Source of the DNA: Psammoneis japonica
Lineage: Eukaryota
Direction: 5' to 3'
Assembly (NCBI GenBank): GCA_008632985.1
Contig: QPGO01000006.1
Location: 62,001 to 126,000, forward strand
Length of the DNA stretch: 64,000 bases
Position 1 is the first letter of the stretch; each line of letters opens with the position of its first letter. Shown piece by piece: positions 8,063 through 64,000 of this stretch. The translations under genes and the position numbers were made by a program. The notes under the pieces are model-generated. The model searched no databases. It had not been told where the DNA came from and worked only from the letters and a program-made list of their open reading frames with translations.

Positions 8063-8082
8063 TCCCTCTCCCTCTCCCAACC

Positions 8083-10559: not shown

Positions 10560-10562
10560 AAC

Positions 10563-22990: not shown

Positions 22991-23234
22991 ATGCCGCATC
23001 GATCTGATAGATCGGAAGAGTGGAATTATGGTTTCCCCTCACATTTTCGCAAAAAATTGTGCGTCGCGTTGCTCTGCGAGAGCTGCGAACTCCGTGTACA
23101 GCACCGTGATTTTCAGACCGATCCAAGACGCTGCACTTCTTTTCTTGGAACTATTTTATTGAAACAGGAAGTCGTCGACAAGATAGTATTGAGTTTCCTA
23201 CCAATGGTTCACGTCGGTTGTTGGTCAATTTAGT

Positions 23235-37149: not shown

Positions 37150-38547
37150 TGGATCTGTCCGACTCTGCCATGTCCAACATCTTTCTTGCATTCATCATCG
37201 TGCACTTTGTTCTCTCGCTTCCAGTTCTTGTCGGGGGCATCGAGATCTACGTTCGCTTCTTCCATCACCATGTTTTCGGCCTCTTTCCTTGGGTGTTTCC
37301 AAAGAACTGGACGACAACGGCAAGTGAACATGACTGGCTTGTGCACCCAAGTTTTGTGCCTTGACAATCACATCTGACTGTGTTCTTGCGTTGTTGCCGC
37401 CGTGATGTAGGAGCCGGCATTTGCTGACGACCGCGATTGTGGAGAAGAGGATGTCAAGCGCTTCTGGCACACCATGCATCTCTTGGTTAGGATGTTTGCT
37501 GTCTTTTGTTGCAGCCATGCAATCGGTGTCGATGCGAAGCGGGCGTGGCGCATTTTTCGCAGCCCGACGTTCAACAGCAGTGTGTCTCTGTTGACGGGGC
37601 ACATCATTTTGGAAGCAAGCATCAATCTCTACAAAAAGCTCATTGGCACGATTCAAAAGTCCATCATCTTCTTCCGCGATCTGTCGAGTGCATTGATGGA
37701 GTCCACAGTCAAGATGGTGGGTGAAACAACTCCAATCACGGCAGCGCTTGTCAAATTCGTTTGCAAGAATGCGCTCAAGACAGTCAAAGGGTGTGCTTCC
37801 AGTGTCGGATCCAAGGAAGACCCTTTGATTTTGCTGGCGAGTGTTGACATTGGAGAAGTCGTTTGTGCCACTGACAAGAAGATTGCTGGTGTTGTGATCC
37901 ATCTGCTCGTCGCGTCGGCACACGGACTTGACGCAACACAATGCACTGGACTTGCGTCTTTGGTTTTCTGGCGCTTTGCTCCGTGGACATTCAAGTGTTA
38001 CAATGAAGGCTGTTTTGGGAAGGGACTGGAGTCAACCATTGAGTTGCTTGATTCCAAGTGCAAACGAGGACAAATTGCAATTCTCAAACAGGGTTCGGGG
38101 CATGTCGAAATGCGAGCGAAAATTCTCAAGGTGCATTTCGATGACAAGCCAGTTCCCTGTCACACCATCCTCTTGCCCAACAGAAAGGAAATTCTACAAA
38201 CGGATGAGTTGCAGTTAATGAAAGAGCTGCCTCCAACTTGTTGCAAGCATTTCGAAGACGATTTTGACGACGAGGAGGACGAATTTGAACGAAGCAGGGA
38301 AATGATGTCAGTGTGGCAAGTTTTGTTGAGCTCAAAAAGGTTCTGGCCGAAACAAATGCTGTGGTCCATGCACACGTGGCGGCCTCACCAATGTGGCAAC
38401 CTGTCGGTGAGACAACACAAAAAAGCAATCCTGTGCGCGACATTTGAGTTCTGCTTTTTGGGAAATTTAGCTGCATCGGAATGGAAAGAACTCGTCAAAA
38501 TGACACTGCGACGACACCTGCTCTGTGTGCATGCAATGCTTGTTTAG
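37150..38547 (+). pseudogene. TA-depleted copy of a hypothetical host gene
   Basis: AKILKVHFDDKPVPCHTILLP...EILQTDE resembles a recurrent diatom motif (VH.DD..PYYTI...E.QT, from recall) with YY read as CH. Confidence 0.45.
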
Positions 38548-38664
38548 CACTGATCATCTTTTGAATTCCACAGCATTTGTGGTTGATCACGTGTTCTACA
38601 TTGTACGGCAGCCGAGCGATGCTGGGCTTCCGATCATGCGACTGCTCGCACTCTGTTCTCTAGA

Positions 38665-39570
38665 CATGGATGCAACCATTGATGTTTCTTTTGGTTGTGG
38701 CATGCCGCGTGCTCTTGACAACAATGAAATTTGATGGATTTCTTGTCGCACATCCAATGGGTCTTCATCGTCGTGCAAATCACAATGCTCCGCCACGTGA
38801 TCAATGGAAAAAGACATGTCTTCTTCTTCTTCCGATGATGATGATTCTTCTTCTTGCAGGCGTTGTTGCTGTCTCGCAAGAGCCGCCATGCGACACAATG
38901 ACAATTGTCGACAGAGTGACTGTTGCATGCCACCAATGGACGACATGGAGGTGGATGTGACTTCACTTGCAGCCGTGCTGGGAGTCATGTCACTTGTCAA
39001 GCTGCATGCATCCACTCAAAGGATTCATCATCAATTGGGCGCTCACTGGAAACAACCGATGCTGCCATTGTCGCAACTGCAGCCATCTTTGCAACACTGG
39101 GGACTGTCATCCATGGCGCAGCCATTGTCATCATCTTGCTTGGATGTTTTTGTCTCGTCTTTTTGTTTCTCATTGCTCGTTTTGCTGGTCCGCGTCTGGT
39201 CTTGGGTCGTTTCTGCACTTTCCACCAAACTGCCAATGGGAGCTGACACCAACACAAGTGCCACGGCTGCCACGCAGACACCGCAACTCCTGCATTGTTG
39301 CTGCTGCATTTCTTGGAAGACTTCAATGACTTGTGCATTTGAGGCTTCTTGCAAACTTGTCGTATCGCCCAAGGCTTGTTGTTGCACCACACGCACAAAT
39401 TCTGTTTCGACGGGACTGCCTTGAAACAAAACTTGGCCCATGCACTTCAAAGTCGTTGCAGTTGTCAACAAGACTCGATTTGATTTTTGCAAGCCCAAAT
39501 CAATGCGGATGGTCTGCAGTGAACTTTGAACAAAGTGTTCCATCAAGCATTGTGAAAGGGAATCAAAACG
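38665..39570 (-). pseudogene. Partial, hypermutated copy of the membrane-protein gene at 59940-61718
   Basis: Shared peptides GQVLFQGSPVETEFVRVVQ, GVCVAAVALVLV, TSMSSIGGMQQS, RMAALARQQQR and SSSEEEEDMSFS.DHVAEH. Frameshifted. Confidence 0.92.
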
Positions 39571-39654
39571 GCCCTCATTGATTCCGGCATTCTCATCACT
39601 CTCGTGACACACTCCGACGAAAAATTGGAGCGACTTCGCCCACAACATCTTCCG

Positions 39655-41240
39655 TGCACGTGGGACTTGCAGTCACCAGTCCAGCCTCCACAAGCACGTC
39701 CAACTGATGGCATCCGTGTCGTCCAGGCCCTGGAGCAGAGTGCAGGAGGATGCCGGTGCAGCCGTGCAGGTTTGCCGACCGCTTTGAGCAGCAACCGTTG
39801 GGTGCCTTGAGGCGTTGTTGGACAAGCATCCTGACTTAGATTCAAAATTGAATGCCAAGTCCAACAAGACACTCATGCCATCGTGAAAAAAATCAGTGAG
39901 ACGCTGGCTGCAGTTCGTGAGCAAGTGACATCTTGGACAGAGAGAGTGAGTGCGAAAGCACACTTGAAAAAGCCAATGCTTCCCAAGTCCCAACAGCACA
40001 GTGTGTCTGGACCCCAGGGATCTTTTGCATCTTTGCTGCTCGCAGCATCACTTTTTAAAAATGAATCTCCTGTGTCTCTGCACAATTGGCATCTGTTGTC
40101 AAGGGTCGAAGACAAAGGGCATTGCATCCTCTCTCAGTTGATGAAAATTGAGCTGAGGGGACGTCTGCAATGCAATGCACTGCCCATCTTGCATCAGGGG
40201 TGCCAATTTTCTGTGACACCTCACTCTTCAGCCGAACTTGATGCCGACGATGGCAACAAACGGCTTCCGGGGCTTCCACTCCGCTTCATCACAAACATGC
40301 GAAACAAAAAATTGCATGAAAAAGATGCAGTCAAGTCTAGATTTCACAGAGCAAATGGCAGAGGCGGCGCTTCGTCTCCTTCTCCCTCACAGGACCGGCA
40401 AACAGACAATCACGAATCTTTGCCCCCTCAGCATCCTTGCTGCTGTCGTTGATTCAACCAAAACCAAAATCACTGGTCACCCGCAGGATTCAAAAAGGCA
40501 CCAATGCACAACAACAGAGACAAAACATGCCGTCAAGGGTGGCGACCACTTGAGACGCAACGAGACGACTCCAGAGAGCATGACAATTCTCGAGGAGAGA
40601 CGACACGACTCAAACTGACGGAGTCGACCCCACAGCTCCTGCAGAGCTTCTTTCTCGATGCCAGACTTTCCCTCTTAAGAGTGCAGCATCGATGACGACG
40701 TAACGTGGCTGCTGTCAACGCCAAGGGTAGAGTCACTTCATGCACGTGGGACTTGCAGTCACTGGTCCAGCCTCCACAAGCACGTCCAACTGACAGCATC
40801 CGTGTCGTCCAGGCCCTGGAGCAGAGTGCAGGAGGATGCCGGCACAGCCGTGCAGGTTTGCCAACTGCTTTGAGCAGCAACCGTTGGGTGCCTCGAGGCA
40901 TTGTTGGGTGCGCATCCTGACTTAGATTCAAAATTGAATGCCAAGTCCAACAAGACACTCATGCCACAATTTAAAAAAAAAACAGTGAGATGCCAACTAG
41001 CAGTTTGTGAGCGAGCAACATCTTGGATGGAGAGAGAGTGGAGAGTGAGTGCGAAAGCACATGTGAAAAAGCCAACGCTTCCCAAGTCCCAACAGTGTAG
41101 TGTGTCTGGACCCCAGGGTAAATTTTTCCTTCTTTGCCACTCGCACCATCACTCTTTCAAAGGTGTCCCCTGTCTTTTGTCATGGGATGGAAGACAACGG
41201 GCATTGCATTCTCTCTTAGATGATGAAAACAGATGGCTGG
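39655..41240. repeat. Direct repeat pair, about 39655-40150 and 40741-41240
   Basis: tgcacgtgggacttgcagtcac...gtgtgtctggaccccaggg occurs twice, with weaker similarity beyond. Confidence 0.9.
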
Positions 41241-41514
41241 ATGACGTCTTTAGGAGTCTGAAAGGGCCAAGTGGCAGAAGGTGATTTGAGCAACAGGGAA
41301 CGCAACGTCAGAATTTGGTGCACCCTCTTGAAACGCGGTGACACTTTTACGGAGCAGTGTCGATTCAGGAATGTGAAGAGGTGCCGCACCCTCCAACAAG
41401 GGGTTGCTCTTCACAGGAATGAATTGTTGTAGGACCGCGAAAAGACTCTTGGACGTTCATGACTTGCACATCATACGGTAGAACCGGCACGTGCCGAGAT
41501 TCGTCATGATTCCA

Positions 41515-41625
41515 ATCTCTCATCCGACTCTCACCCTCTCATCGAACTCTCACCGAATCTCTCATCCAAAGTTCTCACCGCTCTCATCCTGAAAAATCCA
41601 GATTTCTCACCGACTCTCACCGAAA
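41515..41625. repeat. Cluster of ctctca(t/c)c motifs, possibly transposon subterminal repeats
   Basis: About nine closely spaced tctcacc/tctcatc motifs. Confidence 0.6.
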
Positions 41626-44600
41626 AACTGAAAAAGCTGAAAGCAAAATTCCATCTGTGCACCAAAGAAAATGAGAGAACGAAAACCATCCACAAGTTTC
41701 ACGATCACTTTTTTTTACAGTAGATCAGCACACTGACCGCACGACCATGACCGAAAACAACGGTGACCCCGGGAAACGTAACACATGACCCACCATGGAA
41801 ACAACGGAGAGGTCCAAAGCATCAATTTGCTTGAACTCGGCACACTGCACTCCTCCCTATTCACATTCATGAATCGCCTGGCAATTGTTTGAAAATGAGA
41901 CCAATTTGGCGCTGTCGTTGCTGGTGCTGAGTGCAAGAGAGGATGATTCCTGCAGGGAGCTGGGCAAGATGACAAAAGTTTGTGTGCTCGCAACTTGTTG
42001 TCCAACTGCTTTTCTGGCTTCATCCCGGCAGAACTTGGCAAATCTTTTGAATCAAGAAACGCTCATGTTGCATGTGAATCGGACTGACGGGATCACACCT
42101 GCGCAGTTGGAAAGACTCAAGAAGCTGTGCAAGTGTGCTGATTGCTGATGCATGATTGCTTTCAAAACAGTCGCCACTCACTCATTTGCTTGTTCTGCCA
42201 TTTGCATTGTTGCACCGTTCCACTGGCTAGTTTTTTTTTTCCATTGAAAGGAACAAGTTAGTGGGAACAACACATTCAGATTTTACAGCTTGTGCTGGCC
42301 TCATTAGAAAGTGGTGGCAACAATGTGCTGTGTCGCTTCCGTCATGTTGATGTTGGACATGGGCGTTTCTTTTCCCACGGCCTCTTTTTGCAACTGAATC
42401 AATTCCTCTTTGTGCTTGGACATTTTTTGTCAAACGTTTCGGCTCGTCCCGTCTCCACATCAGGTGTGCCTTCCTTGGTCCAACGATCAAAGCCAGTTGC
42501 AGCGTCTCACAAGAAACTCCGCAGAGCTGGAATTCAATGGATCACATGCTGGGTGCTGTCGTGGAAGAGAGCAATTCCAACCTGAGTTTACACAGAAGAA
42601 CAAGTCTCTAGCGGCAGGCCCTCTCTGCAGCAGAGCAGAGATGCCGCAGTGACACGGTCGCTGCAAGGGATGACTCTTGAAGAATTCTCTTTAGAAAGAC
42701 ACCAAGCATGAAATCGTTGGTCACCGCTGGTGTCGCCATGGCTGCTTTTTCCTCTTGTCTTTTGCCAAAGGCACGTTCCCACCCCGACAATTTCGGCCGT
42801 AAAATGCAGGGGTCACCGATTTAGTGTTTGTTGTTTGTTGTCCCGGATGATTGCTCATTCGTTGGACTTTGTTGGCGAAGAAATGTGACAATTGCATTTG
42901 GGTGACTTTTGTTCGAACATTTAGTGTGAGTTGAACTTACGTCAATGATGATGTCACAAGGGTCTTTCTGGGTCACCACGGTTCAACTTCTACGTGCGGT
43001 GGCATTAGCGTCGAATCACATGACCAAAAATGTTTCGTGTCAATTACAGATGACATTGCAGGAATTAGGAATTCTCAGAATGAACACATGTCTTGCCAAG
43101 CACGTAGATTCTATGAGTGCCGCACCAGAAACAAAGATCGCAGTGCAAAACATTCATTTTTTTTTCTTCGACGATGAGCGAAAGCCGTTGCGCAATGTCG
43201 GGTAAAGGTGTGAAGACCCTCGGTTTGATGGCTCCACATGCCAACCTTGACACATGCCGAGCACATGTGGGAAGCCTGTGCCGAGGGTTTGAAGCGGGAG
43301 TGTTGCGAATGTCGCCGATGCATTTTTGGAATCCTGTTTCGCCATCTTCGTCTGCCAGCTGATGCGCCTTCTTTGTCGACTGTTTTGGCAAAGACTTGGT
43401 CAGCAGCAAAAAGTGTGAGCCACACTTACATTCTAACACATCCAAACTGCAGCATGAGAGCTTTGTGCCGCACAAAACCAAAAGCCATTGAGCCTTCTCA
43501 CTGTTTTCCTTGGCACCGGATGGTTTGGATCGGAGCAACGTCTTGTGTCAAACGCAGGAAGCAACAAACAAGCGGATGAACATGGTGGCACATGATGCAC
43601 CCCACGTTCTCATTCGTGAATGTCCACTTGACAATGTGAGAGCTTGCCACTGCAATGGAAGCTGACGTCAAACAAGTGCTCGCTTCTTTTTCTTCGGAGT
43701 CCACAGAGAGAAGATGTTGAAAGTAAGAATGTGCAACAAAAGGCAAAGCAAGATTTGGTCAATGCCAAACACTTCAAACCACACACTCGCATTCTTGCAC
43801 ACAATGACGACAACATGAGAGCTTTGCACCACAATGAAACGAAAAGGAAAAGGCCTTCTCACTTTCTTTCCTCGGCGCAGCGGGTGGAATCGACAGGTGC
43901 AACGACTGGTGTCAAACAGAGCAAAAAACAAACCAGCTGGGGCCAAATGTGGCAGTTGATCCACCACATTCGCATTCTTGCATTCTCATGTGACAATGTC
44001 AGACCTTGATGCTTCAACAGAAGCATCAATCAATCGAGTGCTCTTGCTTCTTCTTCAGGGTGCACAAGAGAGAAGAAATTGAAAGTGAGAAAATTGAAAA
44101 GCACGTTTCGACATTTTGGGATTGTTTTGAATTGCAATGTTCACATTTGACTCACCTTGAATGTTCGAAAGAGACAATGTTCCAGCTGTCGGTTCAACAA
44201 GATGAACAGACACGAAACCCCGCCGTGTCACTGCTTGTCGGCACCCTCAGAATGCTGCAACATTTCTTCCTGATTGTTGGCAACTGAATTTCTTTAGTTT
44301 CCGTGCAGCTTCAAGCAAACAAGCATTGCGGGATGTTCCTTCGAAGGTCAATGACACAATGAGCTGATTGTCAGCACATGACACACTTACGATGGCCGTC
44401 GAAACACTTCCAGCGTCATGGTGAAGGTTTCGGGTTGAGAAAAAAAATGTGCAATCTTCCGTTGCGGTCTTGCCGTCACAAGTCTGCACAAGATCTTGGT
44501 GCCATTTCTACGCTGGTGCTAAAAATTTCGCTCTACAGACGCAAATGTCATGGATGAACCGTGGTGGGGCAGGCGTGCGTCGGAACTGCCTGACACCGGC

Positions 44601-44656
44601 CTCGTTTGGCGTCGAAGGCTCAATTAAAACAGTGACAGATGATGTCATCAACTTAA

Positions 44657-45327
44657 CCCCACTCCCAGCGCGAACCATGCAGTGGTTCGCCGCGCGAAAT
44701 CACGGATGCGCGCGACTGTTGCCCCGAACCATAACGTGGTTCGCTGCACGCCAAAAACGACCCGATGCACAATGGTTGAAAAGGTAGAAGGTAAAGAGAC
44801 ATCTACAACAAATTTGCATCAGTCGATGCAGCAAAGTCCACTTGACAACATGCATGCTTCATTTTAGTGGTTTGCTACGTTCTTAAAAGTCTCCACACTG
44901 CTGCCGTCTTGTTCATCATCGAACCACATTTTTCTGGTGAATTTTGGCATTTGACCTGCTGGCACAAATTGCACGTAGATTTCTACGCACGTCCTCCGAA
45001 CCACATCATGGTTCGACAATTCTGCAGGGTTCTTGGCACTTGTCTACGCAGCGAACCATTGAGTGGTTCGACAACATCTTCTGGTGCTGTTCTACGGTGG
45101 TTTCTACGGGGTGATAAAATCACCGCCAACGACCATGACGGTGATTTGACGGCGACCGTGCTTCATGCACGAGTGGTTGCTGACAACACAATGCATTGGT
45201 GACGATGGCTTTTTGACTCTGTTAAAAGGTCACACATGTGCAGGTGCCACTTTATCGTGTCAGTCACGAGTTTCACGTTGCGCAAGTTGCGAACCACCAA
45301 GTGGTTCGACATTTTGCCCGAGTGGGG
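44657..45327. mobile_element. piggyBac-type non-autonomous element, 671 bp, TTAA TSD
   Basis: ttaa|ccccactc ... gagtgggg|ttaa (TTAA at 44653-44656 and 45328-45331). Five internal CGAACCA-N5-TGGTTCG palindromes. Confidence 0.8.
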
Positions 45328-47056
45328 TTAAGCAGGAAAATGTCTGACGTGTCTTCATGTCTCACGGATTTCATTTGTGAAAATGACAAACACTGCATTT
45401 GCGGTCAAACACAGAAACAAAATCACTTGGATTCGTTGGCAATGCAATGCTCGTGGAAACAATGCGAAAAACAATGAACACTGGATGTGCGCGCTGCGCG
45501 ATTTTGATTAGATCAGCGATGCCTGCAAATGTTTTCATTCTGCACAAAATTCCTGTAGAAACTCTCGTACAAGAAAAATCGCACGTCTGTTTTCCATCCG
45601 CCAATTTACAGATCAGCCAATTTCATGTTCAGCGGCTGTCTCTTGCGGCCTCGCATCATCACTGCACGCGAGAAATCCAGCAATCCGTTTGTTTTTCCCA
45701 GTGATCAGCGTTTTTTCTGGAACAATGTGCTGGATTGGAATTTTTTAATGGATTGATTGCTGGATGAGGCATTTTGGGTAAAATGATGACCCAATTGCTG
45801 GGACATTCCAGAAAACGACCTTTTTTTACCGGAGTTGTTTCTGGATGCCTTGCATCGTCCGTTTTTCCGTTGGATGACGCGACAATGTCAACGGTCATCA
45901 TTGCGCACCTGTGCTTGCACCATGATGACAAAAGCTGCAGCCTCATTCTTTGTCTCTTTCGTTGCTGTGTTCCGTTTGATGCAAACAATGACAGAATGAC
46001 AAAGCGTTGGCTCTGCAAGCATTTTTTATTTCTTTGGCTGTCAGTGCATCTTCGATGAGGGCGAGTTGTTGCACCATCATGCCGTGCAGCGAGCGAGAAC
46101 ATGCGCAGCGGCATGGATGTGGCGACTCCCTGGCCTTCAATGACAGAGCATGGAACACCTGTTTTTGTCATCTTCTTCATGGATGGTGAGTGAATGTTTT
46201 GAGGCGGATCGTGCTCTGCTCTCACATTGTGTGCTTGCCAGCCCCGTCGTGTTCTCTCCATGTCTTCATGTGGCGCGCCCACATGCTTCACTCCGCAGCG
46301 AGGCAAGCATTGTGGTGATTGATGGCCCTGTTCCACCCAAGTTCCCAAGAAAGCCATCTCCTGAGCTTTTGTTTTTCGCGCATTGTGGTGGTCCCCTTCT
46401 CTCATGGCAAGGATCTACGATGGTGCACACATCCGCGGGGCTCCGTGCTTCTGCGTTCCGTTGTGCACACGGCGGACGCAGTGATTGGCATCTCCCCACC
46501 ACCAATGCATCCAAGAAAGACCGTGGTCATGCCACACTTTTTTCATCAGTGGGAGCTACATCGGTCCATCGGTCCAATGATTTGCGTCAGCCGATGCGAG
46601 TGCAGTGTCGCTCCATCCTTGTCCCCATCCGCGGTGGCGGTGTCACGCAACGTGACGATTGATGCCACACATCTGCCTCACCTTCTGGCTCTCCCAACTC
46701 TTGGTCTGTCACCCAGAGGACTGCTGTGCCTTCATCAGCTTGTCCCACAGCATTTGTCCATCGTCTGATTTGGGCGGTGCACCGAGTGAAGCTCTGTGCG
46801 GAGGCCCCACTGACGAACCTTCTAGTGCCATCCCTCTGATGATGCGTGCCAAGCCAATGTCCAACCGGCGAATCTAGTGTGGCACCGTCTTTTTCCTCAT
46901 CAACAGCACACCCAGTGACGTTCCCACATTGTTGCCCTTTGCTCGTTGGATCCCTTTCAGTTGTGATGATGAACTCGGTTCCTCTAGGACGCAAAATGTG
47001 CATGGTGCGCACCAAACTGTTGTGTGTCATTTGTTTTGCCAGTTCTCACACATTTT

Positions 47057-47608
47057 CTAACACGTGTGGCATGCTTTTGGCTTTGCAATTTCCCCTGCGC
47101 AGTCCATCTCCCTCCACTCCGAGGTCACAACATGGCAATCTCTTGGTGATTCATCATCTGGACTTGTGATGTGCTCTTTTAGCCGCGGCAAGAAGAGGCA
47201 CTTGTGGAGAATGTCTTCTGCCGTGAAGTCGCCGCATGCATTGTCACAGACCGCCGCCGCAGTGCACTCTGTCCACCCAAAGTGCGTTGCCCCGAAAATT
47301 TCCTCTCCCTCATCTTGCACACGTTCAATCTCAATGTGCCTTTCTCCTTTTACAGGAATCCCATGCTTGCCGTTACGAAGACACAAAACAGACAGCGGCT
47401 TGTGTTTCCGAAGAGAAGCTCGAGCTTCCTCCTCATCCTTGCACAGGTGACAGGGCTTGCAGCGGATTCTTTCTTTGTAAGCATCTGAACCATTGTCGTC
47501 AGTGCCGTTGCAATCGTCTGCTTCATCTTCATCAAACTCGACCTCAACTTGTTCTGTTTCGCCTTCGCCCTCGCCTCCATCTTCCTCCATCTTGGTTGGC
47601 TCTGACAC
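47057..47608 (-). pseudogene. Coding relic, possibly the C-terminal part of a transposon protein
   Basis: Acidic tract followed by a globular-looking segment (CLFLPRL...DCHVVTSEWREMD) in a TA-poor block. Family not assigned. Confidence 0.3.
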
Positions 47609-48149
47609 TCTCTTTTTTACACCCTAGGGTGCAAATTTGACAGCGAGTGAAGGAAACATCAAGGGTGTGTCATGCTTGAACAACAACACATCACTTGCTG
47701 GGAGGGTGTCTCGCGTCATTCCCACTCTGACGCAGGTGAGTGTTCTCGTCTAGATTCAGTTTTTGTTGTTGAGAGTTGGCCCAGACACTCTCTTCCAGAC
47801 ACCCTAGAATGCAAATTTGACAGAGTGCAGGAAACATCAAGGCCATGTCATGCTTGAATGACAATGCAAAGGTCACAGAGAAGGGTGCGGATCGGGATTG
47901 TTTTGTTGTGGGAGTCGCGTTGAGTTGTTCAGGAGTGCCAGTGCATCAAATGTGTTGAAACATTAAATCTAAATGACTGACAAAGTTCTGTGCATTTGCT
48001 CTAGATGACTGCCACAGAATGGTTTCCATTGTTTGCTGCCACAGAGAGGAGCTGCCATTTGCTGCGGAATTTGCTGTGAAGTGTGTCTGTTGATGAGAGT
48101 GGGCGGAGAAAGTCATGGCCGCGGCGGCTGTCACTCCACATAGATTGAT

Positions 48150-48890
48150 GGCACCAACCAACCCAACAACTGCAGCCAGAGCACATTGGGGGTCTTTGGT
48201 GGACCCCAGGCAGGCTTTGAGAACTGTGGTTGATGCTTTCAAGGCCACTCTGGCACAGTTGTTGCCCCAGTCACTTTACACCACAATGAGGGTGAGACTT
48301 GAAATCCCAACTCCACAGTGAAAGAATGCCATGAGTGCACCAGCCAACCCAACAACTGCAGCCAGAGGGCACTGGGTGCCTTTGGTGGACCCCATGCAAT
48401 GCTTTGAGAACTGCGGTTGAGAGTTGCAAGGCCACCCTGGCTCAGCTGTGGCCCATGTTGCTTCAGCCCACACCACACCAAGGGCGAGACTTGAAATCCC
48501 AAGTCCACAGTGAAAGGACACCATGAGTGCACCAAACAATCCAACAACTGCAGTCAGAGGGCATTGAGGGTCTTTGGTGGACCCAAGGGGACACTTTGAG
48601 AGCTGTGATTTTGAGAGTTGCAAGGCCAGCACCCTGGCTCAGCTGTGGCCCCGGCCGTGTCACTTCACACTGGGCCCATGCCAAGGGTGAGACTTGAAAC
48701 CCCAACTCTGCAGTGGAAGGATGCCATGAATGCACCAACCAAGAACCCAACAACTGCAGCCAGAGGGCATGGGGGTCTTTGGCAGTTCCCAGGGAACACT
48801 TTGAGAACTCTGTGGTTGAGTTTTGCAAGGCTGTTCTGGTGCAGTTGTTGCCCCCATGTCACTTCACACCACTCCAAGGGTGAGACTGGA
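48150..48890. repeat. Satellite family 1, about 190-bp unit, four copies
   Basis: gcacca...ccaacaactgcagccagag...gtctttggtggaccc...ctttgagaactg...gagacttgaaatcccaa recurs near 48151, 48337, 48529 and 48732. Confidence 0.85.
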
Positions 48891-48929
48891 TGAGCACCTC
48901 AATTGTGTCACAAAAAAGTCATCAGCTGA

Positions 48930-50135
48930 GAGCTCTGGCCATTTTGCTGTTCTCCTTGGGTGGATTTTAAGAGCTTTCAATGTGGTTGGCTTGGTTCATC
49001 TGGTGTTGTTTTGGCCCAACATTGCCCAAGACCAGCACAAGACAGACTTGATCACTTCATTTGGACAATGGATGAACACCTCAGTGCAACAAACTGACTG
49101 TGCAGTTGTCAACCAAGGGTTCTGGCCTGCTCACTGTGTCCCTGAGCTGGTTTTTAAGAGCATTGATTGTGGTCAGAAAGGTTCATCTGTCGTTGTTTGG
49201 GTCAAAATCTTGCTCAAAGCTGGCAACAGACAGACTCATTTTTTGTCTGCTGGACAATGGATGGGTGCCTCAAGCATGGCAAATGAACCAAACAGCAGTT
49301 GCTTGCAGAGGGCTCCAGACAACTCAATGTGACCCAGGGGTGGACTTCAAGAGTGGTGGTTGGCTTGGCTCATCTTGTGTTGCAGTGTTGGCCCAACATC
49401 AGCACCCCAGCAGTCTGCAGACAGACTCATTTTCTGTCTGGACAATGGACAGATGCCTCAAGCATGGCAAACAAACCAAACAGCAGTCATTTGCTTGTGG
49501 AGGGCTCCAGATGACTCAATGTGACACAGGGGTTGACTTCAAGAGTGGCAGCTGGCTTGGCTCATCTTGTGATGCAGTGTTGGCCCAACATCACCCCAGC
49601 AGTCTGCAGACAGACTCATTTTCTGTCTAGACAATGGACAGATGCCTCAAGCATGGCAAATGAACCAAACAGCAGTTGCTTGCAGAGGGCTCCAGACAAC
49701 TCAATGTGACCCAGGGGTGGACTTCAAGAAAGGTGGTTGGCTTGGCTCATCTTGTGTTGCAGTGTTGGCCCAACATCACCCCAGCAGTCTGCAGACAGAC
49801 TCATTTCCTGTCTGGACAATGGACAGATGCCTCAAGCATGGCAAACAAACCAAACAGCAGTCAGTTGCTTGCAGAGGGCTCCAGACAACTCAATGTGACC
49901 CAGGGGTGGACTTCAAAAGTGGCACTTGGCTTGGCTCATCTTGTGTTGTTGTTTTGGCAAAACATCACCCCCCAGCAGTCTGCAGACAGACTTGTTTTCT
50001 GTGTCTGGACAACACACACCAAACAGTTGCCAGCAAAGGGCTCCAGCCAACTCAATGTGACCCAGGAGTTGACTTCAAAAGCGGCACTTGGCTTGGCTCA
50101 TCTTGTGTTGTTGTTTTGGCCAAACATCACCCCAA
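48930..50135. repeat. Satellite family 2, about 188-bp unit; degenerate relatives at about 52250-52900
   Basis: caactcaatgtgacccaggggtggacttcaa...ggcttggctcatcttgtg...gcagacagactcattt...ggacaatgg repeated at least five times. Confidence 0.9.
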
Positions 50136-50219
50136 TCTGGGATCTGGTGCAGATGCCTCCTCCTCTTCCTCACTCAAGAACACTGTTTGCATCCAAAGGA
50201 CCAACATCTTGAAGGGTTG

Positions 50220-52150
50220 AGCACAGTTTAGGTGGCTTGCTCAACTGCAGTTGTGGTGGCAAAGCAGCCTCCTCTGGGAAGTGTGCAAGGCAATTTGCCT
50301 GGTTGTGGTGGCAGAGCAGCCTCTGTGAGTGCAGAGCTGCACATTGGCCAGGTGTCAGCCAGCAGAAAAGTCACTTGTGACAAAGAGTTTGCAGCTTTTT
50401 CTTTTGAGCACACTCTTCATGTCCCAAGACACAACCTCAATGTGTTGAGCACAGTTTGGGTGGTTTGCTTGACTCTGCAGTTGTGTTGGCACCAGAGCAA
50501 AGTCTGGGAAGCATGTGGAGAAACCTGGTGGCACCAAGGTTTTGGCTGCCAGAAAAAGTTGCTTCTGCCAAACCTTTTGCACTCTCAGCTTCTGAGCACA
50601 CTCTTCACATCTCAATGCACAAACTCAAATGTTTGAGCACAGTTTGGGACGCGTTCCAGCCCTAGGTGGGACTCCGTGTGACATTTGGCCCGTAGAATTC
50701 TACGTGCGAGCTCCGTAGTACGAGAATTTAATTAATGGATATATTTATCTTCAACATCAAATAAACGGCCAAGTTTGTGGTACAATTATGCCTCTTACCA
50801 CTCGACGTTTTTGCAAATGCACCTGCCCTACGCGATTCTTAAGACATTATAGAATCGCGCTGTAACAAAAAATGTCAAAAGTTTTTGGACGGATCGCTCA
50901 ATAAGTGTACCGTAAAATGACACAAAATATCAAAAAATCACGTAGAATTCTACGTGCGCGACATACGACGAGATTCAAAAAACTATCGATGTCACAGTTC
51001 AGTAGTACGAGGTCCCACCTAGACCTGGAACGCGTCTTGGGTGGGTTTCTTGGTTGTGGTTGTGCTGGCAGAGCAGCCTCTGGGTGTGCAGAGAACCCTG
51101 GTGGTGAGGTGTCAGCCAGCAGAAAAAGTCACTTCTGCACAAGTGTTTGCAATCTTGTCTGCTGAGCTTGCACTCTGTCCATGTCCCAAGGGACTGTCTC
51201 AAAGGGCTGAGCACAGTTTGGTTGGTTTGGTGGGGAGTGTGGCTGTGGAGCTCGAGCAAAGTCTGGGGAGCCTGCAGAGAAACCTGGTGGCACCAAAGTT
51301 TTGGCCACCAGAAAAAGTCACTTTTGCCAAACCTTTTGCACTCTCACCTTCTGAGCACAATCTTCACATCTCAATGCACAATCTTGAAGGCTTGGGCACA
51401 GTTTGGGTGGGTTTTTTGGATGTGGTTGTGCTGGCAGAGCTGCCTCTGGGTGTGCAGCAGAGAATCCTGGTGGCGGTGAAGTGTCAGCAAGCAGAAAAAA
51501 TCACTTCTGCCAAGTGTTTGCAGTCTTGTCTTCTGAGCTCACTGTCCATGTCCCAAGGAACAGTCTCAAAAGGCTGAGCACAGTTTGGGCAATTTGGTGG
51601 AGTGTGGCTGTGGAACTGGAGCAAAGACTGGGCAGCCTGCAGAGAAACCTGCGGTGGCACCAAAGTTTTGGCCACCAGAAAAAGCAACTTCTGCCAATTC
51701 TTTTGCACTCTCAGCTTCTGAGCACACTCAATCTCAAAGGCTTGGACACAGTTTGGGTGGGTTTTTTGGCTGTGGTTGTGCTGGCAGAGCAGCCTCTGGG
51801 TGTGCAGAGAACCCTGGTGGTGAAGTGGCTCTGTCAGCCAGCAGAAAAAATCACTTGTGCTAAAGTTTTTGCAGTCTTGTCTTCTGAGCTCACTGTCCAT
51901 GTCCCAAGGAATGGTCTCAAAGGGCTGAGCACAGATTGGGCTGGTTCTTTCTTGACTGAGGTTGTGGTGGCAGGGCAGCCTCTGTGTGTGCAGAGTTCTT
52001 GTTGTGTGATGGCCAGGTGTCAGCCAGTGGAAAAAGTTGCTTCCAACTGATGCAACAAATGGTTTGCACCCCAAGCTTCTGAGCACACTCTTCTGTCCCC
52101 AGGCACAATCCCAAAGCATTGAAGAACAAGTGTTGGCCAGCAGCAGAAAA
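50220..52150. repeat. Satellite family 3, about 350-bp unit, interrupted by a MITE
   Basis: gcacagtttgggtggg...gtgctggcagagcagcctctgggtgtgcag...gtcagccagcagaaaaa...catgtcccaagg repeated. Confidence 0.85.
50648..51036. mobile_element. MITE, 389 bp, same family as 29994-30389 in opposite orientation, 4-bp TSD ttgg
   Basis: gacgcgttccagccctaggtggg...cccacctagacctggaacgcgtc, with ttgg at 50644-50647 and 51037-51040. The empty site cacagtttgggtggg is seen in neighbouring satellite units. Confidence 0.93.
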
Positions 52151-54959
52151 AGCTCCCTCTGACAAATTGTCTGCACTCTCAGTTTCCTCCACTCTCACCC
52201 ACAGGCACAAACTTCTTGAGCTGCTGACCACAGCTTGGTTGGGTTGGTTTTAGCCACAATTGTGGAGTGGCAGTTGGCTTGAGTTGTCTTGTGTTGTTTT
52301 GGCTTAACATCACCCCAGCCTGACAGCAGAGGCAGACTTGATCTTTCCATCTGGACAATGGCGGACACCCCAACAAGTCATCAGCTGGGAATTCTGAGGA
52401 CCAACTCACTGTGACCCAGGGGCAGAATTTAAGAGCATTTGTTGTGGTTGGCTTGGCTCATCCTCTGGTGTTTTTTTGGCCCAACATTGCCCCAGACCAA
52501 GAGCAACAAACAAATCAAATGGCCATCAGCTGAGAGTTCTGGCTGACTCACTGTGTGACCCAGAAGCATGCTTTCAAAGTCTGCCCCTTGAGAGAATTCA
52601 TTGCAGTTGCCTTGGCTCATCTGGAGTTTTTTTTTTTTTGGCCTGGCATTGCCCCAGGCTGCAAGCAGATGATTTTCCACCTGGACAACAGATGGGCACC
52701 CCAAGTGTGAGGACAAAGAAACCAAACTTTTGTCAGCTGAGGGGTCTGTCCAGATTGCTGCATCCCTGAGGGTTCCAGCCAATTTGCCAATTTGCTGTGA
52801 CCCAGGGGTGATGGGCTTTAAGATCATTCATTGCAGCTGCCTTGGTTTGTCCTGTGGTGGTGTTTTGGCCACAAGATGCCCCAGCCCAGCAGCAGATGCA
52901 ACAGAACATTCCCCCTTTCAAGTGTTGAACACCTCAAGAGGCAATGAAGTTTGCTGACATGCAGCAACTGTGTTTGCCTTGTTCTTTCCAACCAAAAAGA
53001 ATGTGCAGTTTTTGGAAAAATGGAGGAATTCAACCACACTTGCAATGTTCTGAAACAATGGCAGAGATGGGACACCACATTGCATCAACTCAATGCTGAG
53101 CTTTGGAGACAGACAACCACAGGTTGGCCCTCAGAAAGGCTGGGAAGACAGGTGTTGCTTGAGAGTCATCATCTTTGCACTTGTGCTCTGAGGCACCTTG
53201 CTTCAACCTGGATTCTTTCATTCAGTTTAGTCACAAAATGATCCCAAGGTGAGCTTTGCTTGATTTTTCTTCTTTCAGGGAATTTCCATCAACCACCAAC
53301 AACTTGCCAATTGGAGCGAGCATGCACCACACATGATGCCACTCCTCCAAACATCAAGCACACAAAAGACAAGTGATCCCATCAACTTCAAATGTTTCAA
53401 CAGCTTCTTTGTGCAGCTCTTGACCATTTCTTTCTGTGCAAAACACATGCAAGCCAACAGCACCTGTGTCAGATGGGTTCATTGAGATTGGAGAAGAGGC
53501 AACGTGAGCTCCCCTCCAGAAGTCAGAAAGTCAGCAACAACATCGTCAATTCTGATGCTCTTTGTGAACTTTTGGGTGGAGAATGTTCTCCAAGATGAGG
53601 CCATTTTAGTTGCCTGTCCTTTGTGATCTGATTTGCCCAAGAGTTGTTGGCACTGCAATTGTGGTGGTGAAGATGGGGGCAATGTCCCCCCAAAAGCCAT
53701 CGCAGCTCTTGTGCCCATTGGCTGGGAATCATGTGAAGACATGCCAACTTGCTTTTCTGGCTTTTGTTGTTCCTGCCGGTGATCTGCTCTTGCCTGCTTT
53801 CTTTCCAGGCCCTGGCTCTTTGATCCTTGCCTTCAACTTCTCAATTTCAGCAAACCTGACTTCTCTGCCTTTTTGCCAAGCCAGGTGTCTCTTCTGTTCA
53901 GTGACCCGTCCAAAGACATTTGCCATCTGGCTCCACTTTTGATCTGAAAGACTTGCATCAAGCTGAGCCACCTGCTGCAGGTGCGGGTGCAGTTGGGCAT
54001 CCTTGTCTGAAGCGCCACTCTCCCAGCCTGTGTGCCATCATGAAACACAGTGGCTGATGCCAAGATTTTGTTTGCTGGTGCTCTTTCTGGAAAAATGTTC
54101 TGCTGGCATCCCTTTCACAGTTTGAGGAGTCTGGTGGGTGAGTCAAGAACCCCCCCCCCCCCCCCCCTCTCTGGCACTCCAAGGGACAACCAAATGAAGA
54201 AAGTTGGCAGCAGTGTGTGCCTCCCATCTCTCTGGCTCTGACTCTCATCTGGCTGTTGCCCACATGGGGGCAGTGCTGGCTTGGTGGAGGAGGGTTCCCC
54301 CATCTGCAGAGCCTGGGCATGCCCTCTGGTTCTGGTGCCTTTGTCTGTGTCCAGCCGTGTTTGCCTCACACAAACAATGCAGGGGTGCCAGGCTGAACTT
54401 CGCATTTTTGACAACTCGCCTCCTGTTTGCGCCAGCTGCACATTTTCTGTGGTCACCCACAACATGTGCCCTGTCATCCCTTTGAGCAAACCCACCACAG
54501 ATCACCTTGTGGCAGCAAGTCAAGAGCTCTGGACAGTGCCAAAATGGGTTGTCATCACCGTTCACACATGCTGTGCTGAGACGGGATGTCTTGAGCAGAG
54601 GGGGTCTGGGACGGACGAGCAGCACTCTGTCTTGCCTGCACGTTCCTTGCAACCGTTGAGGGAAGATAAATTAAAATCCTGGTTGAATACACAACTTATT
54701 CAAACGCTCGTCACCCTCGATTTTTGAGAGGTGTCAATACATTCCGCATTGAAAATATCCATGTAATTGGGTATCCACACATTAATACAGATAAACATAA
54801 TTTCAAATTACCAAAATTTTGAATATAAATTTATATGTCCTTGAAAATATAATACTAAATTTTGACCCAAGAAAAACGAAAAACCATCCAAAAAGCACAA
54901 GACCATCATAATCCAAGAAGCAGCTATACCATGGCCTCGGGATCCGTTGTTTGGCCGCA

Positions 54960-59939: not shown

Positions 59940-61718
59940 TTATTTTTTGTTTCGTTGCGATTGTTTGGCACGTCGTCGTTCTCTTAAAAAATTGGATAAA
60001 TTATCACGATCCTCCATGATTTCACCCTCTTGTGTAGAGGGTCGTTTGGGTTGTGGTGGTGTTTTGTTGTTATGGCTTGTTCCATTCTTCTTGGCCGATT
60101 GCACTCGTGGTGCTGCTTTGGTTTTGGTTGGCAATGGATCCCTTGCGGATGGTTTCACAACCACTTCATCCCACGGAATATCATTGGTACTAGTACTCGC
60201 ATTGGATGACGATACAACCTTGAAGGTTTCTTTTGGCATACTACTGCGTGCTCTTGACGACGATGAAACTGGATTGATGTTTTGTTGTTGTTGTTGTTGC
60301 TGCTGCATTGGGACGACATTGTCATCGTGTAAATCATAATGTTCCGCCACGTGATCAAACGAAAACGACATGTCTTCTTCTTCTTCTGACGATGATATTT
60401 CTTCTTGTTGTCGTTGTTGTTGTCTCGCAAGAGCCGCCATGCGATACGATTGTTGTCGATAAGGTGACTGTTGCATACCACCAATCGATGACATGGAAGT
60501 GGATGTCATTTCACTAGCCGCCATGCTGGGTGTCATTTCACTTGCCAAACTGTACGCATCGACATCAAAGGATTCATCACCATCCCTCTGTTGCACCGAT
60601 GCTGCCATTGTGGACGCAGCCGCCATGTTGGCAACACTATCGTCCATGGCATAACTGTTGTTGCCATTGTTGTCTTGTTTGGATATGTTTGTTGCGCCGT
60701 CTTTTTGTTTTGCATCACTCGCTTTATTGCTACTATTCCGCGTCGTCGCCTTGGGTCTCTTTAACACTTTCCACCAAACTGCCAATAATACCAAGACAAG
60801 TGCCACGGCTGCCACACAAACACCGACAATGATTCCCGTATTGTTATTATTACTGCCACTGTTCTTGTTGGAAGCTTCTTCTTGTTCTTTGGCATATTTC
60901 ACTTCAACGACTTGTACAGTATTCAAGGCTTGTTGCAAACTCGTCGAATCGCCCAAGGCTTGTCGTTGTACCACGCGTACAAATTCCGTTTCAACAGGAC
61001 TGCCTTGAAACAACACTTGGCCTTTATAATTCAAAGTATTAGTAGCTTCCAATAACAATCGATTGGATGATTGCAATTCCAAATCGATGCGGAGTGTTCG
61101 TGGTAAACTTCGAACAAAGGATTCCATCAAGTACTGCGAGAGGGAATCGGTAATTTCTGCAGAATTAATGTTGCCCGACGACAATTCCAACGAAAACGGA
61201 TCGAGCGGAGAGGAATAAATTTTTGGAACAGCCGTGGGAGCCATGGTAGTGGGATTAGTGGTGATGGCAACTGGTTGTGCTGTAGTAGTGGGTACTTCCG
61301 GCGTGGTGGTAATAAAGGTTGGTTCACTCGTTGTCGAAAGAATGGGAACTGCAGTTGGTGCACGTGTCGCGTCTGGAATTGTCGGTGCCAGTGTCGGGCG
61401 CAAGGTTGGAGCAACCGTTGTGGCAGCAACCGTAGGTGATGGGGTAGGTGCAAACGTGGGCGCTTTAGTCGGCATTTTCGTGGTGGGAGACGGAGTGTCT
61501 TCTTCTTCCTCCTCCTCTTCTTCTTCCTCCTCTTCTTCTGGATCATCCTGCTTCAATCGACGTCGTCGCTGCTCAACAACAGGAAAAGAAGCAGCAGCAT
61601 CACGACGAGCTTCACCACGTACACCAGAAGATGATTCAACACAACATGTTGTCATGACAAGAAGGAAAAGTAATAGCAAACATGATACAAGTCCTTGTCG
61701 AGTTCTTGTTGTTGTCAT
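59940..61718 (-). CDS. Type I single-pass membrane protein with Pro/Thr-rich ectodomain
   Basis: 592-aa ORF with signal peptide, RRRRLK, poly-Glu, T-x-A-P-T repeats, a globular segment, TM (GIIVGVCVAAVALVLVLLAVWW) and a low-complexity tail. Confidence 0.88.
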   Translation of the reverse strand: MTTTRTRQGLVSCLLLLFLLVMTTCCVESSSGVRGEARRDAAASFPVVEQRRRRLKQDDPEEEEEEEEEEEEEDTPSPTTKMPTKAPTFAPTPSPTVAATTVAPTLRPTLAPTIPDATRAPTAVPILSTTSEPTFITTTPEVPTTTAQPVAITTNPTTMAPTAVPKIYSSPLDPFSLELSSGNINSAEITDSLSQYLMESFVRSLPRTLRIDLELQSSNRLLLEATNTLNYKGQVLFQGSPVETEFVRVVQRQALGDSTSLQQALNTVQVVEVKYAKEQEEASNKNSGSNNNNTGIIVGVCVAAVALVLVLLAVWWKVLKRPKATTRNSSNKASDAKQKDGATNISKQDNNGNNSYAMDDSVANMAAASTMAASVQQRDGDESFDVDAYSLASEMTPSMAASEMTSTSMSSIGGMQQSPYRQQSYRMAALARQQQRQQEEISSSEEEEDMSFSFDHVAEHYDLHDDNVVPMQQQQQQQQNINPVSSSSRARSSMPKETFKVVSSSNASTSTNDIPWDEVVVKPSARDPLPTKTKAAPRVQSAKKNGTSHNNKTPPQPKRPSTQEGEIMEDRDNLSNFLRERRRAKQSQRNKK

Positions 61719-62049
61719 GGCGGCAACAACAATATACCTCTAGAGAGTATGATGCATGCAACAAACAGTAACCTTAGCAACAACACAGTTTCCTCTCCGA
61801 TCTACCGTTGGTTTGCAGCACAGCAAGCGCACCCCGCGAAAAATGACACGCGTGGGAATCGTACGAATTCAACGCATGCTTTTTATATACACGAAGACGA
61901 ACATATTTCCGTTGAGAATCGTTTTTTGAATGACGTAACAAGATGCCATATCTTTCATTCTATTTCTACAGACACGAATGCGTCATTGGTTGGAAGAACC
62001 AAAAAGATGCCACGTCGCAATGCTCATTTTTCCCTCACAAAATTCAACG

Positions 62050-64000
62050 CAAATTGAATCATGGCACCGCAAGTCCTTGCAACAACATGAGAGTGGTCCC
62101 TTTGACGAGGTGGAAATCAGCAATGAAACAACGCTGGAGTCAGGAACTTTCAAGGAAGATGTTTTTGCAAACAAGTCTGTTGCAGCGCACCCCACCAGCA
62201 TCTGACGAAAACAACAAAACACCCTTTTGGCGACGCCGCACGTTTGCCACCGGCAGACTCAACCGGTCCCACCGGCTGACTGATGGGTGCTCACTGGAAT
62301 CAGCATGCAGCCCTGTGCACAAGCCACCGTGATAGATGAGTTTGAGAGTGCCGCCACAAAACAATGACAACGCAAAGCGACTTCTTCCCGAAGGACATGC
62401 GACACAGTCCTGCCCTTGAAGAAAGCTAGAATGTCAGAAGCTGCACAATCACATCTCTAAAGAACAACAAAATGCCACAAGTTGGTGTCACAAATGTGTG
62501 TGATCATGTGGTTTTGTTGGTCTGTCCATCGAACGATTTTTGATTTTGCAGGCTTGCATGGTTGAACTTCAACTTGCACAGATGCCCTGCAGAAATGTGC
62601 ACAAAAACACACCAAAATCAAAATTTCAAAATCGTGAGGTGGAGAAGTGAAACCACTCTTTCTTCCCTGCACCATCTCGTGGCGACTCCAGCAGATTGTG
62701 ACAACAATGACGATGATTGAAAATGTCGCTTGCATGTGTTGAATGTGCTGAGGAGCAAGAAAGAGTGCATCGTCACTCTCTGACTCCTTGTGGCCACAAA
62801 ATTTGTCTTCACTGCATGGTTTGTTTGCCAGCAGAAAAGACATCCAAAAAAATAAAACCAAATCTGCTGCATTTACGGTGCTGTCACTCCTTTGCCAGCC
62901 AAGCCGGCGCATTGTGGTCAATGCGTCTCGCACCATCCAAAAGAGAAATCATGAATCAGAAAAAAGTGAAGTCGATTGTGAATGCCCAGCTCCTGTCAAG
63001 AAAAAGAAAAAGAGGAACCCCACCAAGTCATGAATGTTGGAATGCCTCCGAGAGAAACAAAACGACGGTTTTTGGCACCAGCTGTGATTGCAGCGGATGG
63101 CCTGCCACTCACAGAGCAAGAGGTGGTTGAAACAGATGAGGATGGCAACATCCCACACACTCCAGTTGGACATGCAGCAGTCAACAGAAAAGGAGACACA
63201 GCTGCCGATGACAACCAAACCAAAATTGCTGTCGCAAACATCTTCAAGAACATGTCATCCGTGCTCTCACCTGTGGTTACAACAGGAAAGAGTGCAGAGC
63301 CAATGAGCCCAAAAAATGCACTCAATCACCTCATGTCAGAAGAAAACAGCACAGCCATGCTTCCATCTATTTTTGCTTTTGACGCCAATGGCACTGACAT
63401 GAATGCTTTCATGGAGACAATGAAGAAGCATGGGAGACAAGGCGACTCATCGGCATTGGCTGTGGGGATGATGACGGCTTTAATTGTGAGAGTTTCAAGT
63501 CAAAATGAGGTGGGGGCTGCCATCAAACGTGTGTCCAATGTTTTCACAACTCAAAAGAGATTCTGTCGTTGGAGATGCTCTTGCCAATTTCAAAGCAACA
63601 ACATCTGCATTGGCCACTGGCATTGCAAAGGCTTCTGAGTGCACTGCAGCCTGCCTTGAACCCAAGGCAAAATTGTTGGCACCTGAGGATGGGGCAATGC
63701 TGACAGCCGACAATGCAGAATTGAAAACAACACATGCTAAAGATGCAGGAGGGTTTGGCAGAATTCAAGGAAGATGCTGTGTTTTGAGTGCTCTGGGGGG
63801 GAAGACCTCAGTTGAGGAGCATTCAGCTGAGCCAGATTGGTCATTCCATTTGACCAATGTCAACAATGTTGTGCTCACTGGTCATGGAAAAGAAGCACAA
63901 CAGCCACATGCTGCGAAATCAGCTCATGTCTCGATTTTTGACATTGACAAAATTTGCACTGCTCACTGGAACAACAGAACAGCCAATTGACAGATGCAGC
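62050..64000 (+). mobile_element. TA-depleted degenerate block with a RING-finger-like coding relic
   Basis: CVEC...PCGHKICLHC at about 62735-62815, followed by broken frames. TA is rare. Confidence 0.4.

Follow-up and report, generated by a model that had tools for sequence, protein, structure and literature searches.

The DNA analysed here comprises 64,000 nucleotides of Psammoneis japonica contig QPGO01000006.1 (positions 62,001 to 126,000; hereafter the window) and contains long blocks from which the dinucleotide TpA has almost disappeared. In a preliminary description of this sequence, the few TA sites left between positions 47900 and 54660 were said to lie almost all in the tetranucleotide YTAR, the only context in which neither strand reads TAY. 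From this it was proposed that the A of TAC or TAT is the preferred substrate of the process and that TAR is hit more slowly. Two questions are raised by this locus: what removed the TA sites, and why were those in YTAR left? The YTAR bias is probably the footprint of a hypermutation restricted to domains of nongenic DNA, in which TpA was changed to TpG or CpA and CpG, more slowly, to the same two products.

Residual TA sites and their flanking bases

Dinucleotide contents were expressed as observed/expected ratios (o/e) and the window was sorted into three classes of blocks. The gene islands (19,485 bp in total) have an ordinary dinucleotide content, with o/e values of 0.60 for TA, 0.98 for CG and 1.19 for TG/CA. 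In the TA-poor blocks with near-normal CG (25,152 bp; hereafter partly depleted), these values are 0.12, 0.72 and 1.47. In seven blocks poor in both TA and CG (18,786 bp; hereafter fully depleted), they reach 0.02, 0.16 and 1.79. The loss of TA and the gain of TG plus CA balance each other (36.4 versus 36.2 per kb).

Between 47900 and 54660, 46 TA sites were counted, 30 of which lie within an inserted element of 393 bp (50644-51036) whose composition is normal. Outside this element, 14 of the 16 remaining sites are YTAR, as had been described. This exceeds both the fraction of 0.356 calculated from the flanking dinucleotides (p=2.8e-5) and that of 0.16 found in the islands (p=7e-10). The six octamers quoted as examples are all present, at 48968/49155, 49628, 50229, 51861, 52305 and 53607. 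The two fully depleted blocks in this region contribute 5/7 YTAR sites (48000-50643, with tandem arrays of periods ~189-192 bp; TA o/e 0.044, CG 0.064) and 7/7 (51037-54550, in part a tandem array of period ~182 bp; TA o/e 0.033, CG 0.072). The same pattern had been claimed for 19335-22990 and 25840-29990, where 4/4 and 2/3 sites are YTAR; within the corresponding fully depleted blocks, all three residual sites of 19450-22990 and 2/3 of those of 25850-29990 are of this type, and in the block at 30500-32050 the count is 4/5. Over all seven fully depleted blocks, 24/30 TA sites are YTAR, 13 of them TTAA, with 35.6% expected (p=8e-7). The TTAA sites at 48968, 49155 and 52430 occupy homologous positions of one repeat family, and the count becomes 22/28 when they are merged. 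The tendency is weaker in the partly depleted blocks (77/177 versus 0.296 expected, p=6e-5), and 137 of the 847 TA sites of the gene islands (16%) are YTAR. The residual sites are thus not spread over contexts as the flanking composition predicts.

The NTAN counts in the blocks and in the islands were then compared and context-specific rates were fitted, and both showed that the loss depends on the flanking bases. As a fraction of the island level, TAA survived at 0.25, TAG at 0.28, TAC at 0.13 and TAT at 0.04 in the partly depleted blocks; in the fully depleted blocks the values were 0.10, 0.05, 0.01 and 0.01, respectively. Among all NAN trinucleotides, strong depletion affected only TAN (0.006-0.28 of the island level), and AAN, CAN and GAN stayed at 0.63-2.27. 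Since TpA alone was erased among the A/T-containing dinucleotides, GC-biased gene conversion was ruled out.

Rates were obtained with a Poisson model that sums the hazards of the two strands, the hazard of each strand being determined by the base 3' of its A, which gives ten strand-symmetric NTAN classes. The ancestral NTAN distribution was taken either from the gene islands or from 80 unmutated relatives of the mobile element resident in the window (YTAR 25.9%). With the island baseline, the model fitted both the partly depleted (p=0.21) and the fully depleted blocks (p=0.55), and two classes, TAR and TAY, described the data better than a single rate (likelihood-ratio chi2 of 114 and 59). The fitted rates k for TAA, TAC, TAG and TAT were 0.40, 1.16, 0.36 and 2.38 in partly depleted DNA and 0.58, 3.21, 1.28 and 3.57 in fully depleted DNA. 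The ratio kY/kR was ~4 with this baseline and 2.1-2.7 with that of the 80 relatives. In five of five fits TAT was lost faster than TAC (2.05-3.57 versus 0.92-3.21). With the 80 relatives as baseline, TAT stands out and TAC lies near TAA in partly depleted DNA.

The next base also matters. In every TA-N group, survival is lowest or close to lowest with a T at position +2; it is the lowest in three groups out of four, and among the TAT-N sites it is TATA that has no survivor. An A at +2 goes with the highest survival in two groups (TAAA and TAGA). Of the 60 half-sites that survive in the fully depleted blocks, 43 are TAAA, TAGA or TAAG. TA loss is thus fastest when T follows the A (in other words, when A precedes the T), then when C does, and slowest with A or G, and a T at +2 accelerates it. 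The TA sites that read TAR on both strands last longest or hold the highest steady state, above all T-Y-T-A-R-A sites and those resembling TTTAAA.

Former TA sites, timing and edges of the changes

TA sites that once existed can be recognized in a mobile element located at 7824-16721 (+ strand), within a partly depleted block (3501-16450). The element carries split direct repeats: 7824-8078 resembles 16017-16272, and 15572-16018 (repeat X) resembles 16274-16721 (repeat X'). It contains a Pol-like open reading frame (ORF) of 1267 amino acids (P0035; 10560-14363, + strand), for which 296 homologues were found at E<=0.001 (best 1e-221), two of them from the diatom Fragilaria crotonensis. The 120 best-scoring of these 296 homologues were used for comparison. 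In 18 columns, Tyr is present in at least half of the 120 homologues; at these columns the window ORF has His 8 times, Cys 7 times, and Tyr, Phe and Trp once each. Such replacements imply that TAY codons were turned into CAY or TGY. The Tyr content of the window ORF is 0.24%, and it is at least 1.44% in 120/120 homologues. The TA o/e of the element is 0.13, versus 0.40-0.84 in 80 related metagenome loci; since none of these 80 loci is TA-depleted, the depletion is not a property of the element family. Among the 57 TA sites left in the element, 26 are YTAR, versus a baseline of 0.259.

The two 449-bp copies X and X' allow the changes to be dated. They differ at 30 positions, all of which are transitions, and 28 of the 30 differences fall in columns with a pyrimidine-purine dinucleotide in both copies, which leaves just 2 differences of other kinds. 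The columns were distributed as TA/CA (8), TA/TG (4), CA/TG (3), CG/CA (5) and CG/TG (5), with 4 TA and 17 CG shared by both copies. The ratio between single and unchanged columns puts the loss per copy at an estimated ~60% of TA sites and ~23% of CG sites; per site, TA was lost ~3.6-fold faster than CG. A loss of ~60% of TA beside 2 differences of other kinds indicates hypermutation and not a mild genome-wide bias. The changes occurred after insertion and duplication, and on both strands. The strands were about equally affected (His 8 and Cys 7 in the ORF), and tests for runs of one-strand events, as expected of a processive activity, detected no clustering (p=0.26 and 0.70). Equal strands and the lack of strand runs argue against an origin at the level of RNA or single-stranded cDNA.

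A pseudogene (38669-39564, - strand) provides a second record. It is a hypermutated copy of an intact gene (59940-61739, - strand) that encodes a Ser/Thr-rich 599-amino-acid protein with a weak Mid2-like match, and this unmutated paralogue was used as the reference for polarizing the changes. The pseudogene was aligned over 969 bp with 60211-61148 of the intact gene (71.6% identity). Its reading frame is broken and it is TA-free: the 37 aligned TA sites of the paralogue correspond to CA (14), TG (9) and gaps or other changes (14).

CG sites were changed as well. Conversion of CG to TG or CA is visible in the X/X' columns, in the Arg to His, Cys, Trp or Gln replacements of the Pol-like ORF and in the low CG o/e of the fully depleted blocks. 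Survival of CG in these blocks, relative to the islands, was 0.11 for CGA, 0.11 for CGT, 0.26 for CGG and 0.37 for CGC, YCGR being the most depleted context.

The depleted domains have sharp edges. At 19400, 23000, 25850, 54600 and 62030, the TA density, 0 on the depleted side, reaches 4-9 per 100 bp in the space of a single bin. Another edge lies inside X', near 16525, ~200 bp before the end of the element and ~400 bp upstream of the ORF that follows (16923-18050). Proximal to it, both X and X' are mutated. Distal to it, every TA or CG kept by X is also kept by X', while X has lost 9 TA and 2 CG still present in X'. The losses of TA and of CG end at the same edge. As this edge falls within a repeat, position decides which DNA is mutated, and not homology or the identity of the element. 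The islands consist of genes plus a few hundred bases. Noncoding island DNA (34001-35000) has a TA o/e of 0.86-0.87, and selection alone is therefore rejected as the reason why the islands kept their TA sites.

The sequence of the depleted DNA was compared with that of public reads. Over depleted stretches of 295-542 bp, contigs of a public run showed 0-5 differences from the window, and contigs assembled from read k-mers at single-copy depth showed 0 differences over up to 524 bp. Differences to paralogous contigs comprised 505 transitions and 107 transversions. Among the 40 variants listed from a total of 639, 34 were transitions and 31 of these 34 exchanged TA or CG with TG or CA.

With polarized cases from these sources, the orientation of the products could be examined. 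If the A of TAY is attacked, YTAY should yield YTGY and RTAR should yield RCAR. This was observed for 10/11 cases in the pseudogene pair, 4/6 of the listed read variants, 3/6 Tyr codons preceded by a pyrimidine, 4/5 cases in X/X' and the one Ile codon (1/1). In total, 22/29 cases fitted (76%, one-sided p=0.004; 0.68-0.80 expected from the fitted rates), with the caveat that flanking bases may have mutated too. Judged from composition only, orientation was weak in partly depleted DNA (61-63%); in fully depleted DNA it was strong (30.45 versus 6.44 per kb, 83%) and confounded by CG-derived products and ancestry.

The initial proposal was accordingly retained in part. TAR is hit more slowly, as TAA and TAG survive best and the TAR/TAY model outperforms a single rate. 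A preference for the A of TAC and TAT agrees with the faster loss of TAY and with the orientation of the products, except that the two are not equivalent, TAT being well ahead of TAC. The designation of the A in TAY as the substrate is less secure: a T in RTA describes the same data, the T at +2 has its own effect, and only half of the Tyr codons preceded by a pyrimidine have the predicted orientation.

The remaining features of the window are as follows. A further fully depleted block lies at 601-3500 (TA o/e 0.021, CG 0.152), and TA-poor blocks at 37150-47900, with near-normal CG, and at 62050-64000, where CG depletion grows toward the window end. Other copies of 37150-47900 present in the same sample retain TA at positions that read TG or CA in the window. 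For 43400-45300, contigs of a second run of this sample (X2) were 90-95% identical and had TA at such positions, indicating that less-mutated copies of the family exist in the same sample. The element at 7824-16721 has the repeat order A1 ... B1 A2 B2 around its ORFs, which is the layout of DIRS/PAT-like retrotransposons; these also encode a reverse transcriptase and a tyrosine recombinase. Its Pol-like ORF (E=0.23) and the relative P0056 (E=9.8e-6) matched RVT_1 weakly, below the cut-off; no Pfam family passed the cut-off for this element family, no recombinase domain was found, and the Pol-like profile matched no PDB sequence. The family is abundant on marine metagenome contigs of 5-10 kb and in F. 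crotonensis, and seems poorly described. The gene islands contain intron-poor ORFs. One of these encodes a glycosyltransferase-8, whose named best relatives come from the diatoms Epithemia and Thalassiosira (36-42% identity), with 51% identity to other records. The depleted blocks, especially 501-16500, 19500-23000, 26000-32000 and 37000-54500, lack TAA and TAG and show long stop-free frames on both strands; 140 stop-to-stop frames of at least 120 amino acids were counted in the window. A Pfam scan of 110 ORFs of at least 90 amino acids from the TA-poor blocks returned 0 families, and most long ORFs of the depleted blocks were on this basis rejected as genes. The homologue search with ORF 37411-38544 found none, ORF 3924-5378 had a single weak match (E=2.6e-6), and an Rfam scan of the window gave 0 families.

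Possible origins of the TA loss

The hypermutation would act on the mobile element, the pseudogene and the satellite arrays of this diatom-like genome and would spare genes together with a few hundred flanking bases. Its chemistry may be a deamination of adenine to hypoxanthine within 5'-T-A-[T>C>R]. This would be the simplest route: as hypoxanthine pairs with C, the change of A to G is fixed with no additional step. Deamination of cytosine or methylcytosine at CpG would take place alongside, in the same silenced domain. That a natural enzyme deaminates chromosomal DNA adenine at 5'-T-A-[T>C], together with CpG deamination, at silenced nongenic domains as a genome defence is a tentative proposal, which we consider possible and rather doubtful.

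Several results weigh against domain-restricted hypermutation as the source of the YTAR bias. The first is the inserted element at 50644-51036 (joint 50643 to 51037), which has normal TA and CG contents and terminal inverted repeats of ~25 bp. A second unmutated copy (29996-30390, - strand), alike at the ends only, lies inside another depleted block. The element is present in many copies, with a summed contig depth of ~87,000 versus ~60-700 nearby, and a contig without the insertion exists; an exact search of metagenome contigs for its inverted-repeat motif gave 0 matches. A high-copy element has thus remained untouched inside depleted blocks. Either it inserted after the last activity, or it is too short or exempt, and the process would accordingly be episodic, past, size-limited or selective. 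Secondly, no deaminase domain was found in the 154 window ORFs scanned against Pfam, and no other candidate gene for the mechanism was found in the window. Thirdly, the rates are sensitive to the model: the rate ratios hinge on the assumed ancestral NTAN distribution (4 versus 2.1-2.7), and the additive model was marginally rejected for the whole of the partly depleted blocks with the baseline of the 80 relatives (p=0.037). The Tyr-codon subset showed no strand bias (YTAY codons became Cys 3 times and His 3 times), and the composition-only orientation of the mobile element, which has the predicted sign (gain of 8.45 versus 5.30 per kb), lies inside the spread of the 80 loci. At least one residual TA site looks re-created: the CTAG at 49628, where the other five units aligned with it in the array have TG, is more likely a back-mutation than a survivor. 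Finally, the public run is probably the assembly's own sample, and its reads exclude a consensus artefact without being independent support.

The strongest alternative retains the hypermutation and changes the attacked base, which would be the thymine of 5'-R-T-A (A-T-A > G-T-A >> Y-T-A), for instance oxidized or otherwise modified as a 5-methylpyrimidine and thereafter pairing with G; methylcytosine in CpG would be processed by that same activity. All the counts that back the A in TAY fit it equally, as the two descriptions are complementary. A single rule, a 5-methylpyrimidine before a palindromic purine, would cover both TA and CG, whose losses share an edge, and CG too is lost faster with A/T flanks. 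In dinoflagellates, 5-hydroxymethyluracil occurs preferentially at TpA; the parts of the literature consulted on diatoms and this base comprised dinoflagellate papers only. Against a common rule, the TA-poor blocks retain most of their CG sites (o/e 0.72), which makes the two losses distinct, at least in their kinetics. Oxidized thymine and oxidized methylcytosine are weakly mutagenic or repaired back, which fits a near-complete conversion poorly. We consider an attack on thymine unlikely.

It is less likely still that the TA changes are errors of an error-prone polymerase, made in repair patches triggered by recurrent deamination and repair of methyl-CpG in silenced DNA. Such a process would explain the common domains and edges of the TA and CG changes, and polymerases of this class err most often by changing A to G at T-A. 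In the A:T phase of antibody hypermutation, the hotspot of the error-prone polymerase is WA. Here, AA was not depleted (AAA 0.90-1.08, AAC 0.92-0.98 and AAG 1.05-1.17 of the island level), and the WA hotspot was rejected on the AAN counts, in which only AAT was lowered (0.67-0.74). In addition, TA was lost ~3.6-fold faster than the supposed CG trigger, and the conversion is almost total (TA o/e 0.02).

An origin of the bias at the creation of TA sites, and not at their removal, is improbable. The residual sites would then be in a steady state of back-mutation from CA and TG. The CTAG at 49628 agrees with this, as do the near-identical tandem units at 49291-50045, in which about half of the differences are adjacent TG-CA double flips (in one pair of units, 4 double flips account for 8/16 differences). 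These flips would reflect short-lived TA or CG states resolved in opposite directions. The residual TA sites are indeed partly a steady state. Fresh transitions from CA or TG would give 25.7% YTAR, versus the 80% observed (24/30, p=7e-10), and the clearly ancestral TA sites of the mobile element keep the same order (26/57 versus 0.259). The steady state itself requires removal that depends on context.

The last alternative, misread modified bases or TG/CA-rich low-complexity DNA that never contained TA, draws on satellite arrays that have no unmutated ancestor in the window and on a sole run that is probably the assembly's own sample, and is barely credible: read k-mer contigs reproduce the sequence exactly (up to 524 bp), strand-discordant misreads should also yield TA or CG calls and none are there, the Tyr to His or Cys replacements and the paralogue pair reveal former TA sites, and transversions and indels between copies attest normal divergence.

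Known systems and significance

The interpretation of the locus as domain-restricted hypermutation was compared with known mutational systems. The nearest is repeat-induced point mutation (RIP); in Neurospora and other ascomycetes, it converts C:G to T:A at CpA, raises TpA, lowers the GC content and creates TAA and TAG stops. Both systems show saturating transitions in mobile or duplicated DNA, a dinucleotide target, intact genes, sharp edges and a bimodal dinucleotide landscape. The defining features of RIP nevertheless fail. The direction is opposite: A:T is changed to G:C at TpA, TpA is erased (o/e 0.02-0.12), TpG and CpA are doubled (1.47-1.79), polarized changes run from TA to CA or TG, and TAA and TAG stops are removed. 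RIP mutates both copies of a duplication; here, one paralogue is fully depleted and the other normal, and X and X' differ across ~16525. RIP targets duplicated DNA, and the inserted element, with its summed contig depth of ~87,000, is untouched. Identical repeat halves were treated according to position, so that the target is not chosen by pairing of homologous DNA. In addition, the host belongs to the stramenopiles and not to the fungi.

Hypermutation of CpG (TCG) in basidiomycete repeats and methyl-CpG decay may resemble the CpG component, with CG changed to TG or CA in putatively silenced DNA and A/T-flanked CG changed faster. They leave TpA untouched, whereas TpA is lost here ~3.6-fold faster than CpG.

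A parallel with TadA-type deaminases had been drawn in the preliminary description, on account of their preference for U/T-A-C. TadA and ADAT are tRNA adenosine deaminases with U-A-C as their best context, and they accept DNA only after laboratory evolution, as adenine base editors. The parallel extends to a target A preceded by U or T, a favoured 3' pyrimidine and a direct A to G change. It breaks down at the 3' C, as T-A-T was far better than T-A-C throughout, and is weak because TAC barely exceeds TAA (partly depleted blocks, 80-relative baseline).

ADAR and APOBEC enzymes also leave clustered transitions that inactivate retroelements. Their signatures are one-stranded and precede integration, whereas the changes described here affect both strands, follow integration and extend to DNA outside elements; ADAR moreover prefers a 3' G, opposite to the pattern found here. 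ADAR-type hyperediting fixed by retrotransposition was rejected, since changes of either kind, TA to TG (Cys 7) as well as TA to CA (His 8), are found on the sense strand, as was hyperediting before integration, since copies inside one integrated element have diverged from each other. In enterobacteria, a bias of very-short-patch repair has been proposed to convert CTAG to CCAG. This is likewise a T to C change at TpA in a tetranucleotide, with a TA word lowered and CA/TG words raised. It is genome-wide, weak and limited to one word, whereas the loss studied here is domain-restricted and saturating and CTAG survives it well.

To our knowledge, targeted defences against mobile DNA by point mutation consist of cytosine-to-thymine systems only (RIP, APOBEC). 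No description of a TpA-erasing hypermutation was found, for diatoms or elsewhere, in a literature survey made largely on abstracts, subscription-only papers and supplements excepted. Targeted hypermutation of nongenic DNA is a known kind of process; that its chemistry here belongs to a wholly new category is a genuine possibility. If adenine is the target, this would represent the first DNA adenine deaminase system of natural origin. It would be a chemical mirror image of RIP, a defence that removes TAA and TAG stops along with Tyr codons instead of making stops. Such an enzyme would be relevant to base editing, for which this activity was evolved in the laboratory.

For the annotation of such genomes, TA-free DNA without TAA and TAG produces long false ORFs in six frames, by which gene callers are misled into over-prediction. 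Mutated elements evade similarity searches, and scans based on GC content overlook the blocks because their GC content is not shifted. The flank rules (TAT > TAC >> TAG, TAA, with a helping T at +2) offer a handle for spotting the same footprint elsewhere. A saturating, domain-restricted change of A:T to G:C at TpA would represent a new genome-defence chemistry and a new force acting on algal genomes.

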